Assembly: GCA_038209515.1 (NCBI GenBank)
Contig: JBBQXQ010000002.1
Span: 12,364 to 76,363, forward strand
DNA length: 64,000 bases
DNA from: Gemmatimonadales bacterium
GTDB lineage: Bacteria > Gemmatimonadota > Gemmatimonadetes > Gemmatimonadales > GWC2-71-9
Direction: 5' to 3'
A program made the translations under genes and the position numbers. Positions 22,736-28,384 of this stretch are shown here, piece after piece. Position 1 is the first letter of the stretch; every line of letters starts with the position of its first letter. The notes below the pieces were generated by a model. That model saw only the letters and a list, made by a program, of their open reading frames with translations, ran no database searches and had not been told where the DNA came from.

Positions 22736-23079
22736 AAACCTCACAGGGTCATCGAAAGGTGGGCGTGGTGCGGCGCCTGTCTGAGCAATATGGGCCTGAG
22801 CGTAAAACATCCGTCCCGCGGGCGCACGAACTATGCCCCGGAAGGTCTCCGAGCCTCGGCTTGCGCATGATCACGCAAGCTAAGGCAATGTAGCAGAGAT
22901 GCTTCCGGAGTGCACCTCGGGGAAACCGTGCGGCGCACTATGAGTAAGCAACGGGTTTCGAGGCGGTGTCAGGCATCACAGCCGGGATCTGCGGGCCTAG
23001 GGATTGTTGCGCCCGACCAACAGTATGGGGAAGGTTGAAGCTATTCAGGCCACACCGGTCCTCTTAGCCCGGAATAACA

Positions 23080-23107
23080 AACGACCGGGGTGATATCCCC
23101 GGTCGTT
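23080..23107 (-). terminator. Intrinsic terminator-like hairpin downstream of the Big_2 lipoprotein gene
   Basis: AACGACCGGGG-tgatat-CCCCGGTCGTT is a perfect 11-bp stem. On the minus strand it is followed by TTGTTATTCC. It sits 53 nt after the stop at 23160. Confidence 0.6.
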
Positions 23108-23159
23108 CGTGGAGCTCGGCGTTAGGAGCGGCGCCGACCGCTATTCAGCGAATGGGCAG

Positions 23160-25088
23160 TTACGGTCGCCTGCAGGATTTGCCCGGCAATGCTGCCAACC
23201 GAGACCGGACGTCATTGAAGGCCTGTTGGTTATCGGCGTTCAAGACGAAGGCCCCATCATATCGCCACATAGTCAGCGCACAGCCAGCCGAGCCCAGGAG
23301 GATGCCCCAGTCTCGAACTTGCTGGGGGGTCATACGACAGTTGGGCGCGTACGTCCCCATGCCCCCCGTGCCGGTGCAGTCCCAAATCCCGTCACGATCT
23401 GGGACGCCGCCGTTAAGGAGGTTGACGCTGAACAAAATGGACATGCCGTCGCGTCTCGCTAGCGCGAGTCCGTCGTCCCGGTACGTGGTGACATCTCCCT
23501 TGCGCCAGGAGTACTGGTCGAGGAGGAACTCGCAGACCCTGTAGGAATTCCCGGGCTCAAAGGTGTTGTGACCATGCGCCACGCCTACCGGTAGCGCGGG
23601 GAAGATGGCCTTAACGTAGCCGCACATTGAATCCACCCGGATCTTCGTCATCGTCCCCGCCGGTCCCCAGGTATTGCCGTCACCCGCTCCGGAGACGTTG
23701 GGTTCATCCATCACGAAGTTCCCGATGATCGTCCCGTCTGCTACCGCCGAGGCAACAGCGGTTTTGATCGCCGAGGTGTTATAGGTCTGCATCTTGCCCT
23801 GCCACTTGACCATGTCGAACTGATACACGCCGTTGATGATGCTCATGTAGTTGTTGTGCGATCCGCCTGTCATCGCCAGAATCAGCTTCATGTGCTTGGT
23901 CCGAGCTGCGGCGATCAGGTCGAGAATCATGGTCGCATTGACTGGTCCGATCGTCGCCGTGAAGGCGTCGGTGTAAGGCTTGAGCGTGGTCACATCCCAG
24001 GAGTCGAATGCACCGAAAGGAATGCCTGATGGAGTTGTGGTTCCGAGGGGCACCGTAATGGTAACGCTCGAAGTGTCCGCCAACCCATCGATGCTCGCGA
24101 TCACTCGGAAAGATCCAGCCGACGAACCCGCGGTAAACAGGCCGCCCGCCGTCACCGTCCCGCCGGTCGCCGAGAATGCCACATTGACGGCGGTGCTATC
24201 CCCGGTGGTGGTGCGCCCATAGGCGGAGAACTGTTTGGTGGTGCCCGGAGCCAGGGTGACCGATGCCGGTAGCAACGTCACCTGGGCAAGCACAGGAGCC
24301 GGTGGCGTCGGCGCGGTATCTGGTGGTGGAGGCGCCGGCTCTATGGGTATGGTCGGTGGGGCGGGAGTGATCACCGAATCCGACGGGGGCGGTGGCGATG
24401 GCGGCGCGTTGATGGTGATCGTGGCCGTGTCCGCGAGGGTGCCCGCATTCTTGATCGCGATGACCCGGAAGGTCCCAACGGTGTCACCCGCCACGTAGAG
24501 CCCGCCGGCGTCAATAGTGCCGCCTTTGGCAGACCAAGTGACCCCGATGGGCACGCTGTCGCCGCCCGCGAGCCGGCCAGTGGCCGCAAAGATTTGGCTC
24601 ACGCCGGGGTTCAGCGTGGCGCTACTAGGGGTCACTACGACCGACTTTACCTTAGCCTGGCGCCGAACGACCGTGATCGTGGAGGTCTGGACCACGTCGG
24701 TGCCGTCACTCGTGCGCGCACTTCCTGCGACCTGGTACATGCCGACCGACGCTGCGGAGAATCTGCCATCTGGCAGAATCGTCCCGCCCGTCGTGCTCCA
24801 GGTTACGGGAGCTGCGACCTCATCGCCGGCCCGATTACGGCCGCGCGCACGGAATTGAAGCAATTGGTTGGTTTCGACAATGACACTGCTGGGACTGACG
24901 AGCAGTGCCACCGGAGTGCTTTCACGAGGCCGCCAGGCGTAGATCCCGGATCCAGGGACGTCAACGGGGGAGTTATCTGGCGAGGTGGCATCGCCACCGG
25001 TGCATCCAGCGAACAGCAGTAGGACCGGCAGCATAGCGAAGTGTCGTGAGATTGCCAGTCTCCGCGCAAGCTTGAAGGTGTACGTCAT
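23160..25088 (-). CDS. Lipoprotein with three Big_2 (bacterial Ig-like) domains, a Pro-rich linker, and a C-terminal ~290 aa domain of unknown function (paralog A)
   Basis: Lipobox LLLFAGCTGG. There are three repeats of the ...V.V.P.s..l..G...qf.A.g....G......v.Ws...g.i...G.... type. Linker PPSPPPPSDSVITPAPPTIPIEPAPPPPDTAPTPPAP. The C-terminal domain is shared with 27173..28384 (DGTIIGNFVMDEPN, LNLLNGG, ALTMWRYD, ALPGKSC). Confidence 0.85.
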   Translation of the reverse strand: MTYTFKLARRLAISRHFAMLPVLLLFAGCTGGDATSPDNSPVDVPGSGIYAWRPRESTPVALLVSPSSVIVETNQLLQFRARGRNRAGDEVAAPVTWSTTGGTILPDGRFSAASVGMYQVAGSARTSDGTDVVQTSTITVVRRQAKVKSVVVTPSSATLNPGVSQIFAATGRLAGGDSVPIGVTWSAKGGTIDAGGLYVAGDTVGTFRVIAIKNAGTLADTATITINAPPSPPPPSDSVITPAPPTIPIEPAPPPPDTAPTPPAPVLAQVTLLPASVTLAPGTTKQFSAYGRTTTGDSTAVNVAFSATGGTVTAGGLFTAGSSAGSFRVIASIDGLADTSSVTITVPLGTTTPSGIPFGAFDSWDVTTLKPYTDAFTATIGPVNATMILDLIAAARTKHMKLILAMTGGSHNNYMSIINGVYQFDMVKWQGKMQTYNTSAIKTAVASAVADGTIIGNFVMDEPNVSGAGDGNTWGPAGTMTKIRVDSMCGYVKAIFPALPVGVAHGHNTFEPGNSYRVCEFLLDQYSWRKGDVTTYRDDGLALARRDGMSILFSVNLLNGGVPDRDGIWDCTGTGGMGTYAPNCRMTPQQVRDWGILLGSAGCALTMWRYDGAFVLNADNQQAFNDVRSRLAALPGKSCRRP

Positions 25089-25434
25089 CGGTCTACCCTT
25101 TCATCGCTCTCCTCGGATCAGTCCCAACCGTTCCCCGAAAGCCACCACCACCCTTGGGCTACAATTACTATACGAATGTAGGGCACTGCGCTCAAGTGGA
25201 AATTTCCGAACAGCTAGTGATTAGTGAGCATTCACTAAACATCATAACTGCCATTTCTATGGTTGGTTATACGTAGCAAGAAATTTCGTTTGTAACAAGA
25301 TAGCGCATAGTATTACTACGGTCGAGCGAGGCGGTGCAGCCTGCAAACTGATGCATAACTACTGGCCACTAGACTCCGTTCCAAGAGGCCCTACATTCAG
25401 TTCACCTGCTCCGAACGGCCCCTAGCCCTAAGCC

Positions 25435-25914
25435 ATGACCGATCTCTCCCAACCCGGCAGCGCCCAACCGGCACCCCGCCGAGCAGGGTCTGGCCCTACG
25501 GTCCTAGTCGTGGAGGATGAGGACCCCCTTCGCAGCGCCATCCGGCGGTTGCTGCAAACTGAGGGCTATGCCGTTCTGGAGGCCCAGAACGGAGCCAGGG
25601 CGCTCGAGCTCCTGACCGGGAGCGAGGCAGCAGCGGGAGTCGAGCTGGTCCTGACCGACCTTCGGATGCCGGTGATGGACGGACGCCAGCTCGCGGCTGC
25701 CCTCGCGCGGGTGCGTCCCAGCCTGCCCATCGTGTTCATGTCGGGGTTCACCGCGCAGCTCATGGACATGCGACTGGTGTCGCCGCAGCTCGCCTTCCTG
25801 GCCAAGCCGTTTCGGAATGACGACCTACTGGCCACCATTCGAAACCAACTCGGTGCCGGCAGCATCGCCCGCCGCAACGTTCAAGAACCGACCCGAAAGG
25901 ATCCTGAAGTTTGA
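25435..25914 (+). CDS. Stand-alone response-regulator receiver (CheY-like) protein
   Basis: TVLVVEDEDPLR (acidic pocket), LVLTDLRMPVMDG (phospho-acceptor Asp), IVFMSGF, FLAKPF (conserved Lys). There is no output domain. Confidence 0.9.
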   Translation: MTDLSQPGSAQPAPRRAGSGPTVLVVEDEDPLRSAIRRLLQTEGYAVLEAQNGARALELLTGSEAAAGVELVLTDLRMPVMDGRQLAAALARVRPSLPIVFMSGFTAQLMDMRLVSPQLAFLAKPFRNDDLLATIRNQLGAGSIARRNVQEPTRKDPEV

Positions 25915-27095
25915 ACATCGCTTACGTCGTGACGAGGTTGGATCCCATTGGGGGTGTGCAGATCCACCTGCGGGACCTCACGGGGGCGCTGCAGGCGCAG
26001 GGCCACGCGCCGACCGTGATCACGGGTGGAACTGGGCCGTTGATCGATGAGCTTCGGGCCCAAGGCACGCCGACGGTGATCCTCCGGCATCTCTCGCTGC
26101 CGATCAACCCCCCGCGAGACGTACGCGCACTCCGAGAGATCCGTAGCCTGCTCAAGCATCTGGGTCCTGACCTAGTAGCCGTTCATTCTTCGAAGGCCGG
26201 AATCCTCGGCCGGCTCGCCGCGCGCTCGTTAGGGCTTCCTGTCCTGCTCACGGCCCATGGCTGGAACTTTACTCCCGGCATCCCGAGGCTCGAGGCAGCG
26301 ATCTACCGGCAGATCGAACGGCTCGCTGGCCCGTTCGCCAGCAAGATCATCACCGTCTCGGAGTTTGACCGACAGCTCGCGATGAAGGCCGGCCTCGCCA
26401 CCGGGGACCGCATTGTGACGGTGTACAACGGCATGCCCGACGTACCCCCACATCTCCGAGCCGATGCGGGGCGGGCGCCGGCTCGCCTTGTCATGGTAGC
26501 CCGCTTCGGACCCCAAAAGGATCACCCGACCCTTCTCCGCGCCCTTGCCGGGTTGCAGGACCACCCCTGGGAGCTCGATCTCATCGGCGATGGTCCCCTG
26601 ATGGCAGAGATGCAGTCGCTCGCCATAACGCTTGGCATTGGCGAACGCACACGCTTCCTGGGTCAACGACTGGACGTGGAGGAGATCCTGGCCCGGGCCC
26701 AGGCCAGCCTGCTAACCACCAACTGGGAGGGCTTTCCGCTGAGTATCCTCGAGGCAATGCGCGCCGGCCTGCCGGTCGTGGCGTCTTCCGTCGGCGGCAT
26801 CGGCGAAGCCATTTGCGATGAGGAGACGGGATATCTGGTGCCTCGCGGAAACGTGGATCTGCTTCGAGATCGCATCGCGCGCCTCCTCACCGACCCTGCC
26901 TTGCGGGTTCGTTTCGGCCTCAATGGTCGCCGCCGATACGAGGCGCACTTCACCCTGAACCACTTCGTGACGAATACGCTGGCCGTGTATGAGGACGTTC
27001 TCGGGAAGGGGAAGGGCGCGGATGGCCGGATGGCCCGGAAACGAATCTCCCACCTTGATGTGGTCAGATCTCCCGATTCGACGAAGCCCTGGTAG
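25911..27095 (+). CDS. Family-4-type (GT-B) glycosyltransferase
   Basis: The TTG start at 25911 overlaps the receiver gene's stop as TTGA. HSSKAGILG; EGFPLSILEAMRAGLPVVASSVGGIGEAICDEETG (E-x7-E motif region). Confidence 0.9.
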   Translation: MNIAYVVTRLDPIGGVQIHLRDLTGALQAQGHAPTVITGGTGPLIDELRAQGTPTVILRHLSLPINPPRDVRALREIRSLLKHLGPDLVAVHSSKAGILGRLAARSLGLPVLLTAHGWNFTPGIPRLEAAIYRQIERLAGPFASKIITVSEFDRQLAMKAGLATGDRIVTVYNGMPDVPPHLRADAGRAPARLVMVARFGPQKDHPTLLRALAGLQDHPWELDLIGDGPLMAEMQSLAITLGIGERTRFLGQRLDVEEILARAQASLLTTNWEGFPLSILEAMRAGLPVVASSVGGIGEAICDEETGYLVPRGNVDLLRDRIARLLTDPALRVRFGLNGRRRYEAHFTLNHFVTNTLAVYEDVLGKGKGADGRMARKRISHLDVVRSPDSTKPW

Positions 27096-27129
27096 CGCAC
27101 AGCGATCGGGTAGTTGCTGGAAAACAAGA

Positions 27130-27155
27130 AGACCCCCGGGCAGCCCCGAGGGTCT
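27130..27155. terminator. Hairpin between the convergent GT4 and paralog-B genes
   Basis: AGACCCcCGGG-cagc-CCCGaGGGTCT gives 10 paired positions with one mismatch. On the minus strand it is followed by CTTCTTGTTTTCC, so it is best placed as the terminator of 27173..28384. Confidence 0.55.
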
Positions 27156-27172
27156 CTTGCGGTCGAGATCGA

Positions 27173-28384
27173 CTACCAGATCGTTGCGGCAGCCAGGTTG
27201 GAGCACCGGGAGCTCCGCGTTTCGCACACCTTGAACACATACTTGCCAGCGTGCCCGGGGGAACTCACCGCCAGGCCGTCATTCCGGGGCGTTCTCCCGA
27301 GGACCCCGTTACGATAGAGATCGACCCGAGTGCCTGACGCCCCTGACCATTTGAGAAGGATCGACTGGACTCCATTATGAACCTGTCGCGTGGCAGTCAA
27401 GACGATTCCACTTATGCCGGGAAGAGAAATCGGAGCCGACGAACAGCTACGCCCAGGCATCGCGCCCGCCAGTTGAGACAGATGCGACATTGCGGTCTTG
27501 ATGTCGGACCGCGCCAGATAGGCTTGATCGTATTCCCAGCTGATGAAAGCGCAGGGATAGGTATTCGCCAGCAACTTGGAGCCCCATGATTCGATCTGAC
27601 TCGCGGTCAGCTTCGCCTGGTTGGGCCCACCCTGGAGAATGTTGAGTCCGATGACAAGGGCCAGTCCCTTGCTCTTGGCTAGGGACACGTTCTCCGTGAT
27701 GAACGCACCGACCTCGCCCTTCCGCTCGACGTATGCGGCCCAGGCCGCGTCGAGATAGCGGTAATCGCCGCTCCACTCCGCCAGATAGCTCGGGTAGGCC
27801 CGGACAATGGTCGGCATCTTGGGCCAAAGCTGCTTGCTGTACCCCGCCATCGCGTCCAGCATGGAACCCGAGATCGGATCGCCATTCCAGTTGGTTGGAT
27901 CGTTGGGCTCATCGACCAGGTAATGGCCGATGATGGTCCCGTCCTCGATGTAGGAAGCGAAGTTGAGGCCCTTGAACCGATCCACCGAGGCCTTCCACAG
28001 ACTAAAGCTGAAGTGGCCCGACCCATCCTTGTACCGGGACTGACCCCCAGCCAGGTTGAGCACGACCTTGCTACCCCTCGCCCTGATGGTCGCCAAGTCC
28101 GGCATGAGGTCCTCCGGGCCGATGATCCGCAGGACACCATTGTACACGCCTCCCAGGTCGCTATACGGGTGGCCCGTGGTGCCGAAGGGCATGCCGCCCC
28201 GGAAGCTGGTCGCGAGCATTGCGACGGGAGCGGCTACGGGCCCGGACATGGGCGTATTCGCGGCATCGCCCGACGGACTCGCGAGTCGGTCGGTATCACA
28301 CCCGCCGAAGACGAGTGCGAGAGCGGGAAGCAGGAGCGCTCGAAAACGGGCTGCCCGTCTGGCTAATTTGAACAAGTATGTCAT
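27173..28384 (-). CDS. Lipoprotein with the same unknown ~290 aa domain plus a C-terminal beta-sandwich-like domain (paralog B)
   Basis: Start re-picked at the ATG 28384..28382: MTYLFKLARRAARFRALLLPALALVFGGCDTD, compared with paralog A MTYTFKLARRLAISRHFAMLPVLLLFAGCTGGD. Shared motifs are DGTIIGHYLVDEPND, LNILQGG, AFISWEYD and AMPGRSC. The track ORF is over-extended to 28552. Confidence 0.8.
   Translation of the reverse strand: MTYLFKLARRAARFRALLLPALALVFGGCDTDRLASPSGDAANTPMSGPVAAPVAMLATSFRGGMPFGTTGHPYSDLGGVYNGVLRIIGPEDLMPDLATIRARGSKVVLNLAGGQSRYKDGSGHFSFSLWKASVDRFKGLNFASYIEDGTIIGHYLVDEPNDPTNWNGDPISGSMLDAMAGYSKQLWPKMPTIVRAYPSYLAEWSGDYRYLDAAWAAYVERKGEVGAFITENVSLAKSKGLALVIGLNILQGGPNQAKLTASQIESWGSKLLANTYPCAFISWEYDQAYLARSDIKTAMSHLSQLAGAMPGRSCSSAPISLPGISGIVLTATRQVHNGVQSILLKWSGASGTRVDLYRNGVLGRTPRNDGLAVSSPGHAGKYVFKVCETRSSRCSNLAAATIW

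Follow-up and report, generated by a model that had tools for sequence, protein, structure and literature searches.

In glycoside hydrolases (GH) of clan GH-A, the acid/base glutamate is found at the end of strand 4, within an Asn-Glu-Pro motif, and the nucleophilic glutamate at the end of strand 7. A domain that appears to be built on the same (beta/alpha)8 scaffold, but with a different set of active-site residues, is present in two paralogous lipoproteins, here called A and B, from a Gemmatimonadales bacterium. Their genes lie in a stretch of 64,000 nucleotides (contig JBBQXQ010000002.1 of assembly GCA_038209515.1, positions 12,364 to 76,363 of the forward strand), which is referred to below as the window and numbered from its first letter. 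The best explanation, with a probability of about 0.6, is that A and B belong to a new enzyme family, lipid-anchored and resembling glycoside hydrolases, by which the exopolysaccharide of their own lineage is processed, with the activity, substrate and mechanism being presumed.

A different catalytic strategy is seen in GH20, where an invariant Asp-Glu couple operates with the 2-acetamido group of the substrate as the nucleophile (PMC4752478). In GH123 and its newly described relatives the DE motif likewise provides an acetamido stabiliser and an acid/base, as confirmed with mutants and thiazoline complexes (PMC11087588). Within the GHL10 group, Cwp19 of Clostridioides difficile is a lytic transglycosylase (PMC6016235) that has Asp195-Asp196 at the end of strand 4, a Tyr on strand 6 and a Gly in place of the strand-7 Glu, and its gene resides in a polysaccharide-synthesis locus (PMC5765458). 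DigH of Escherichia coli, from the same group, is a lipoprotein glycosidase that acts on denuded glycan strands (PMC12288456). That a polysaccharide locus can encode a glycosidase of its own is already familiar from PelA (GH166 hydrolase domain), PslG (GH39) and PgaB (C-terminal GH153 domain), the last of which is a lipoprotein that works together with de-N-acetylation, and for biofilm polymers a role of such enzymes has been documented (PMC9894940, PMC12022489).

As with clan GH-A (GH5, GH113, GH26, GH30, GH158 and GH2), the predicted barrel of the A/B family is eight-stranded, with Glu-Pro ending strand 4, a Tyr ending strand 6 and a Trp at strand 8, and in B a beta-sandwich comes after the barrel, an order also found in GH158, GH30 and GH26. 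Unlike these enzymes, to which the family has no sequence-level relationship, it has an Asp rather than an Asn before the strand-4 Glu, and an Asn in the place of the strand-7 nucleophile. The adjacent Asp and Glu of a (beta/alpha)8 barrel that lacks an enzyme nucleophile recall the GH20/GH123 type, with the topology here taken from models, but there is no sequence match to these enzymes in Pfam or the PDB and the A/B family is probably endo-acting on a polymer. The GHL10 proteins share the strand-4 acidic pair, the strand-6 Tyr and the lack of a strand-7 Glu (PMC5765458), and DigH also the lipid anchor (PMC12288456). However, the pair is Asp-Asp in Cwp19 and Asp-Glu here, strand 7 carries Gly there and Asn here, and Cwp19 and DigH have peptidoglycan as their substrate. 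Finally, the arrangement resembles that of PelA, PslG and PgaB in that a barrel glycosidase would be encoded alongside the genes for making and exporting the polymer that it cuts. Those proteins belong to other families without a sequence match, and to synthase-dependent systems, whereas the present locus is Wzx/Wzy-dependent, has several paralogs and encodes its deacetylase in a separate gene.

The similarity between A and B is far beyond chance. Their shared domain of around 270 residues aligns with 27% identity across some 300 colinear residues (BLASTP, E = 8e-29), and the N-terminal signal regions are alike as well (38% identity over 65 residues). The original prediction had described nearly identical N-termini and lipoboxes (MTYTFKLARRLA followed by LFAGC in A, MTYLFKLARRAA followed by VFGGC in B) and a colinear C-terminal domain, both of which are borne out by these alignments. 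It had also assigned three Big_2 domains and a Pro-rich linker to A, and this holds, with PF02368 scoring 28.7 bits against a cut-off of 22.8 (E 1.3e-6, residues 268-331) and three segments of about 84 residues aligning colinearly. The beta-sandwich-like tail that it had proposed for B is matched by a predicted seven-stranded sandwich at residues 327-402 with a predicted local distance difference test (pLDDT) score of around 88-94. In both proteins a hydrophobic stretch separates the leader from the lipobox, whose Cys is residue 29. When the pattern [LVI][ASTG][GA]C was tested, a lipobox was present in all five paralogs of the genome, termed A to E (LFAGC, VFGGC, AFSGC, LLGGC and PLLAC, respectively), and also in most family representatives. 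By sequence, A and B are thus lipoproteins; the earlier description of them as surface-anchored stands with respect to the lipid anchor, but the membrane face that they would occupy goes beyond what sequence gives.

The prediction that the domain belongs to no named family is upheld by a series of searches. These involved A, B and further members from a set of 123 diverse sequences, taken as representatives of clusters at 50% identity, which is also the basis of the conservation counts given below. When the 123 members, A and B among them, were scanned singly against Pfam, the barrel domain found no match even at E <= 1, and in A and B there was no significant match in NCBIfam; a hit of DUF4434 to residues 214-274 of B (E 0.08, 12 bits against a cut-off of 344) is noise. 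PHROGs gave no match to the domain, nor was there a genuine one in PDB sequence profile searches with two alignments, where matches to PurE with E of about 4e-3 covered the N-terminal part only and are spurious. The models for Glyco_hydro_20, GH123 and DUF4091 matched neither A, B nor the 121 other members (E <= 0.1-1), and the GHL10 model PF02638 found none of the 123. Relatives in metagenomes number over 620 clusters at 90% identity for each paralog, all annotated as hypothetical, and those with a taxonomic name are from the Gemmatimonadales. A-type homologs were also recovered in metagenome searches. A profile search of 1.84 billion representatives returned 3135 clusters at E <= 1e-3, of which 593 were at E <= 1e-30. 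Elsewhere in the family the accessory modules detected by Pfam are PKD, Big_2, fn3, Ricin-B, CBM96, CBM9 and Laminin_G_3, which are those of carbohydrate-active proteins. On these grounds the A/B domain is a family without previous description.

Models of the domain support a (beta/alpha)8 barrel that is built like those of the clan GH-A glycosidases. The AlphaFold2 model of B has an overall pLDDT of 84, rising above 90 in the barrel, with eight strands alternating with helices, and the model of the A domain alone is also an eight-stranded (beta/alpha) barrel (pLDDT 94.7, predicted template modelling score 0.91). In Foldseek searches of the PDB, the top neighbours of B are GH158 (E 3.9e-9), the GH30 xylanase 1nof, the Cellulomonas GH26 mannanase CfMan26, GH2 glucuronidases and GH5, followed at lower ranks by the PelA hydrolase domain (ranks 16 and 19, E about 1e-5), Cwp19 (ranks 18 and 48), GH191 and Endo H. 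The neighbours of the A domain are, in order, the GH5 mannanase 4awe (E 5e-8, template modelling (TM) score 0.60), GH113 mannanases, Cwp19 (rank 3, E 8e-7, TM about 0.5) and a fucosidase. Over both models the best neighbours, which include GH39, have E values of 4e-9 to 1e-5. In a viral library the nearest models are phage tail proteins with GH5 domains, and two phage models labelled as beta-N-acetylhexosaminidases appear at ranks 16 and 31. The glycoside-hydrolase-like fold that had been anticipated from the sequence pattern is therefore recovered in two confident models. A sugar epimerase or luciferase-like monooxygenase barrel was considered as well and was rejected in view of the lipoprotein export, the lack of a conserved His/Asp/Glu metal set and the carbohydrate-binding accessory modules.

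Conserved residues of the domain were placed on the barrel by the order of strands in the two models. In B numbering, strand 4 ends with Asp158 (121/123), Glu159 (120/123) and Pro160 (120/123), and in the A domain model the dyad is positioned at the C-terminal end of the strand spanning model residues 110-117. The end of strand 6 has Gln217 and Tyr218 (111 and 109 of the 123, respectively), strand 7 ends with Asn248, equivalent to N556 of A (118/123, with a Glu in only 1/123), and strand 8 contributes Trp283 (119/123). Trp166 is found in 122/123 representatives, and Cys278 and Cys314, which may form a disulfide, are nearly invariant. No further acidic position at the top of the barrel is conserved at or above 85%. 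Two candidates for a second carboxylate were rejected, namely the Glu within the ISWEY motif of B, as a strand-8 nucleophile, because most family members have Arg, Lys or Gln there, and Asp286, which is acidic in 96/123 and falls under the 85% cut-off. The original prediction had pointed to a DEPN motif of acid/base type without a canonical nucleophile and had suggested conservation mapping of its Asp and Glu; the mapping agrees with that view, since Asp-Glu-Pro ends strand 4 and the nucleophile position on strand 7 is an Asn.

Natural duplicates provide further information about these residues. A group of 72 relatives, all outside the window, are tandem two-domain proteins joined by a poly-Pro linker (for example P0010 and P0015, with about 590 residues). 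Their first copies retain Asp158 in 70/72, Glu159 in 71/72, Gln217 in 64/72 and Trp283 in 71/72 cases. In the second copies the corresponding figures are 32%, 2/72, 24% and 25%, with Gly113 at 33%. The second copies still keep Trp130, Trp166, Tyr218, Asn248 and both Cys residues, and the positions that they have lost are all at C-terminal strand ends, the active-site side of barrel enzymes. This is the pattern expected of an inactivated enzyme duplicate, and the second copy has probably descended from the enzyme to become a binding module.

The same observations bear on whether the domain is catalytic at all, since it might instead have a lectin-like or scaffolding function and retain or steer the polymer at the envelope. 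The missing canonical nucleophile would suit such a role, as would the Ala that B has at the conserved position 217, and the persistence of Glu-less second copies with W130, W166, Y218 and N248 indicates that the fold lends itself to binding. Yet Asp-Glu-Pro is kept in around 98% of the single and first-copy domains, from clusters that are mutually only 22-30% identical, and it is the duplicated copy, specifically, that has lost the dyad. This loss argues that the dyad is selected for chemistry and not for binding alone. A purely non-catalytic domain is very improbable.

If A and B are enzymes, the Glu that ends strand 4 (Glu159 in B, Glu462 in A) would act as the general acid/base and protonate the leaving group, while Asp158 would orient and polarise the 2-acetamido group of the substrate, allowing neighbouring-group catalysis as in GH20 and GH123 and cleavage beside an N-acetylated hexosamine. 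Such substrate-assisted catalysis is preferred because there is a conserved Asp-Glu pair without an enzyme nucleophile. It is the more specific and the less certain part of the proposal, resting on residues placed in models, and taken on its own it is tentative, with somewhat under an even chance of being right. The enzymes would cut the lineage's own exopolysaccharide after it has passed the inner membrane, bringing about its trimming, release or remodelling, with the Big_2 repeats of A and the beta-sandwich of B perhaps serving as spacers or binding modules. The polymer itself would come from the Wzx/Wzy pathway encoded around A and B; it is probably sulfated, and some of its N-acetyl groups have probably been removed.

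The composition of the locus is the basis for this view of the polymer. The window, together with 12 kb upstream of it on the same contig (L008, contig C2), forms one long polysaccharide locus. It begins with paralog C, divergent from a PMT_2-like membrane glycosyltransferase, and continues with GT4, GT2, Wzy, GT4 and Wzx. There follow methyltransferases and sulfotransferases, a sulfate ABC transporter with a porin, and an acyl module of LuxC, LuxE, a ligase and an SDR protein. The final part comprises a polysaccharide deacetylase of the CE4 type, CysD, CysC, CysQ and CysN, then Wzc and Wza, and lastly A, a receiver, a GT4 and B, beyond which lie unrelated DNA-repair genes. Over positions 1-22810 and L008 the locus thereby includes its own sulfate supply (the ABC transporter, an OprO/P-type porin, CysD, a CysN-CysC-like fusion, CysC and CysQ) as well as three sulfotransferase genes, and its gene content points to a polymer that is sulfated, partly deacetylated and possibly acylated. 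Of the five paralogs, C, A and B share this Wzx/Wzy locus. The divergent pair of C and the PMT_2-like glycosyltransferase, which is of the GT-C type (L008, 217-3199), recurs throughout the genus. A galactokinase gene lies close to paralog D, and paralog E is near a TMEM260-like membrane glycosyltransferase, a homolog of protein O-mannosyltransferases (L007, 7021-11056); the Pro/Thr/Ser-rich linkers that follow the lipobox could be O-glycosylation sites.

Comparable arrangements occur in 80 related loci, all from Gemmatimonadales metagenome-assembled genomes (MAGs). About 25-30 of these keep the order SulfoT-Wzx-GT4-Wzy-GT2-GT4-PMT2-[family member]-Bac_transf, the last being a priming sugar transferase, and many have two to four family members side by side. 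One metagenome contig (L091) carries the deacetylase, a full-length A ortholog (51% identity), a GT4, a receiver, a second family member and GNAT-Rad50-Mre11, and a different Wzx/GT4/Wzc cluster also holds a family member. The distribution of the family is narrow. In a sample drawn evenly from the phylum (151 genomes, 82 genera), it is present at E <= 1e-10 in 12/12 genomes of the GTDB genus to which the host belongs, with 2-9 copies in each, and in 0/81 of the other genera. A sample from the same taxonomic family (121 genomes, 78 genera) added only three further genera, with sporadic occurrence. Orthologs of the PMT_2-like gene at 50% identity or more follow the same 12/12 pattern and adjoin a family member in at least seven of those genomes. 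The matching distributions suggest that the enzyme family and the biosynthetic cluster travel together, and judged by its occurrence the family is, with the PMT_2-like gene, a genus-defining surface-polysaccharide system.

Surface glycosidases may also serve in nutrition, and A and B could be scavenging enzymes that digest foreign soil polysaccharides of plant, fungal or microbial origin and not the polymer of the cell itself. The lipid anchor with immunoglobulin-like and CBM-type modules is typical of surface enzymes that degrade glycans, the family has expanded to several paralogs per genome, mannanases and glucanases top the fold matches, and D and E lie away from polysaccharide synthesis, D with its neighbouring galactokinase. 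Nevertheless, A, B and C are accompanied by no transporter, TonB-dependent receptor or sugar-catabolic operon, and a self-made polymer is indicated by the conserved place of the family in a biosynthetic cluster and by the distribution that the two have in common. Phage-borne copies near tail fibres, described next, also suit a substrate on the host surface, and a scavenging role is accordingly improbable.

Phages commonly carry enzymes that act against the surface polysaccharide of the host. Two different phage or prophage contigs encode A-type members (L089, 8001-9158, and L092, 9001-10047), which are 48-49% identical to the A domain, keep the DEP motif and have ordinary signal peptides. One comes directly after a tail-fibre gene on a T7-like, prophage-like contig, where an integrase (E 5e-68), the large terminase subunit (E 1e-96) and an internal virion protein are also encoded. 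The other is preceded by further genes of phage families and by a central tail fibre of the lambda-J type (E 1e-45). Both contigs have 62-64% GC, like the host lineage. A pattern scan of viral contigs revealed no relative, and the phage copies surfaced only through contigs of exact proteins. Their position near tail fibres is consistent with an enzyme that attacks exopolysaccharide. A role on the neighbouring exopolysaccharide had been part of the original prediction; it remains conditional, and is now much better supported because C is fixed in the Wzx/Wzy cluster of relatives, the family is as narrowly distributed as that cluster and phage copies lie near tail fibres.

A different substrate for both the cellular and the phage proteins would be peptidoglycan, with the family acting as muramidases or lytic transglycosylases in the manner of Cwp19 and DigH and the phage copies as secreted endolysins. 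Cwp19 is indeed among the neighbours of both models, at the ranks given above, its strand-4 acidic pair, strand-6 Tyr and missing strand-7 Glu are reminiscent of the A/B domain (PMC5765458), its activity is that of a lytic transglycosylase (PMC6016235), for which a single acid without a nucleophile suffices, and DigH provides the precedent of a lipoprotein (PMC12288456). The phage copies, with their signal peptides, come after tail genes, a frequent site of lysis cassettes. Against this, not even a weak match to PF02638 is found in any member. The 2-9 copies per genome, many with carbohydrate-binding or immunoglobulin-like modules, are atypical of housekeeping wall hydrolases, and one paralog is fixed in a Wzx/Wzy cluster and restricted to the genus just as that cluster is. 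As peptidoglycan is universal, such a narrow distribution is unexpected for a wall enzyme, and this explanation is considered unlikely.

The N-terminus that A and B share is also peculiar to the family. The leader dodecapeptide is nearly identical in the two proteins (codons at 25053-25088 and 28349-28384), and the motif M-T-Y-x-F-K-L-x-R-R-x-A is more highly conserved between them than the enzyme domain itself. It is found in 33/87 open reading frames (ORFs) of the family and in 0/882 other ORFs of the 80 related loci, and within this genome only A and B have it. The leader could be a family-specific tag for export or sorting, or else a poor Tat-like signal. A true twin-arginine translocation (Tat) signal, suggested by the conserved Arg-Arg, is doubtful since the residues that follow are unlike the Tat consensus. 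There is a variant of the proposal in which this MTYxFKLxRR leader is a sorting tag and the exopolysaccharide is cleaved non-hydrolytically to anhydro-sugars, as by a lytic transglycosylase, or has its chains transferred to another acceptor, with the family being a genus-specific remodelling system that exchanges its catalytic module with the phages obliged to get through that polymer. The variant draws on the single acid, the adjacent Asp and the lack of an enzyme nucleophile, and has a low probability.

Several points weigh against the view that A and B are glycosidases of their own exopolysaccharide. The structural matches are distant, with TM scores of 0.4-0.6 and about 10-14% identity, which corresponds to a resemblance at the superfamily level and not to membership of any matched family. 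From rank 5 onwards the neighbours of the A domain include non-glycosidase TIM barrels, such as the SfnG monooxygenase and psicose epimerases, with E of about 1e-5, and GH20 and GH123 are absent from the top 50 PDB fold matches. Equivalences between residues of the family and those of the GH families are drawn from strand order in predicted models. Residue 217 of B (27734-27736) is Ala where most representatives have Gln, and the position is among those lost in second copies; a homolog that is 92% identical to B (P0003) has the Gln, and the activity of B may be altered or weakened by Ala217. The N-acetylhexosamine content of the polymer is presumed from the neighbouring deacetylase only, paralogs D and E are outside polysaccharide-synthesis loci, and the host belongs to an uncultured lineage represented by MAGs. 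Lastly, the signal peptides of the phage copies, together with the position of one of them after small genes past the tail module, mean that these could be peptidoglycan-lysing enzymes and not capsule depolymerases.

The coordinates of A, B and the features around them are collected below. The reading frame of B is open upstream to 28552, and the MTY start was chosen because the N-termini of homologs share it and a Shine-Dalgarno-like GGAAG is found upstream; the start of A has GAAAGGG at the equivalent position. The hairpins at the ends of the two genes and the receiver and glycosyltransferase pair between them, both part of the original prediction, are confirmed by folding energies and Pfam matches. 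The start of the GT4 gene overlaps the receiver stop by 4 nt, and this pair is on the strand opposite to A and B. The divergent intergenic region between A and the pair (25200-25330) is AT-rich, within a window of 62-68% GC, and contains the palindrome TTAGTGA-N4-TCACTAA, which is likely to be an operator that co-regulates A and the receiver/GT4 pair.

Features of the A/B region, with positions in the window and the basis of each assignment
Feature	Position	Strand	Description and basis
Paralog A, 642-aa lipoprotein	23160..25088	(-)	Signal peptide, three Big_2 repeats, Pro-rich linker and barrel domain; ORF translation
A signal peptide	25002..25088	(-)	MTYTFKLARRLA n-region, then lipobox LFAG-C29
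A Big_2-like repeat 1, residues 59-142	24663..24914	(-)	Colinear alignment of the three repeats
A Big_2-like repeat 2, residues 145-228	24405..24656	(-)	Colinear alignment; Pfam reports two Big_2 stretches in A
A Pro-rich linker, residues 229-263	24300..24404	(-)	Sequence
A Big_2 repeat 3, residues 264-347	24048..24299	(-)	Pfam PF02368, residues 268-331
A predicted (beta/alpha)8 barrel domain, residues 352-640	23169..24035	(-)	AlphaFold2 model, Foldseek
A Asp461-Glu462-Pro463 codons, proposed catalytic dyad	23700..23708	(-)	End of strand 4, nearly invariant
Terminator-like hairpin 3' of A	23077..23110	(-)	14-bp stem, -26.4 kcal/mol, z -5.3, then U-rich tail UUUGUUAUU
Stand-alone response-regulator receiver	25435..25914	(+)	Pfam Response_reg, E 6.7e-21
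GT4 glycosyltransferase	25911..27095	(+)	Pfam Glycos_transf_1 E 1.7e-36, Glyco_transf_4 E 9e-29
Terminator-like hairpin 3' of B	27129..27156	(-)	12-bp stem with 8 GC pairs, -29.9 kcal/mol, z -3.9, then T-rich tail CUUGUUUUCC
Paralog B, 403-aa lipoprotein	27173..28384	(-)	Signal peptide, barrel domain and C-terminal beta-sandwich
B signal peptide	28298..28384	(-)	MTYLFKLARRAA n-region, then lipobox VFGG-C29
B predicted (beta/alpha)8 barrel domain, residues 60-316	27437..28207	(-)	AlphaFold2 pLDDT >90 across barrel, Foldseek
B Asp158-Glu159-Pro160 codons	27905..27913	(-)	End of strand 4 (strand 151-158)
B C-terminal beta-sandwich tail, residues 325-403	27176..27412	(-)	Seven predicted strands; in all ~400-aa B-type homologs

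The fold of the A/B domain is the commonest amongst glycosidases, and what is new is an unnamed family with a catalytic constellation that is atypical for this scaffold. Its scope is narrow, as it is nearly confined to one uncultured genus and the phages of that genus. If the activity is as proposed, A, B and their relatives would be the founding set of a new glycoside-hydrolase family in which a GH-A-like scaffold is combined with a DE-type pair, thereby joining two mechanistic classes that are usually separate. The naturally inactivated second copies of the tandem proteins are ready-made controls for the key residues. The family would then also open the apparently sulfated exopolysaccharide of this abundant, uncultured lineage of soil Gemmatimonadales to biochemical work, and would tie that exopolysaccharide to the phages that infect the lineage.

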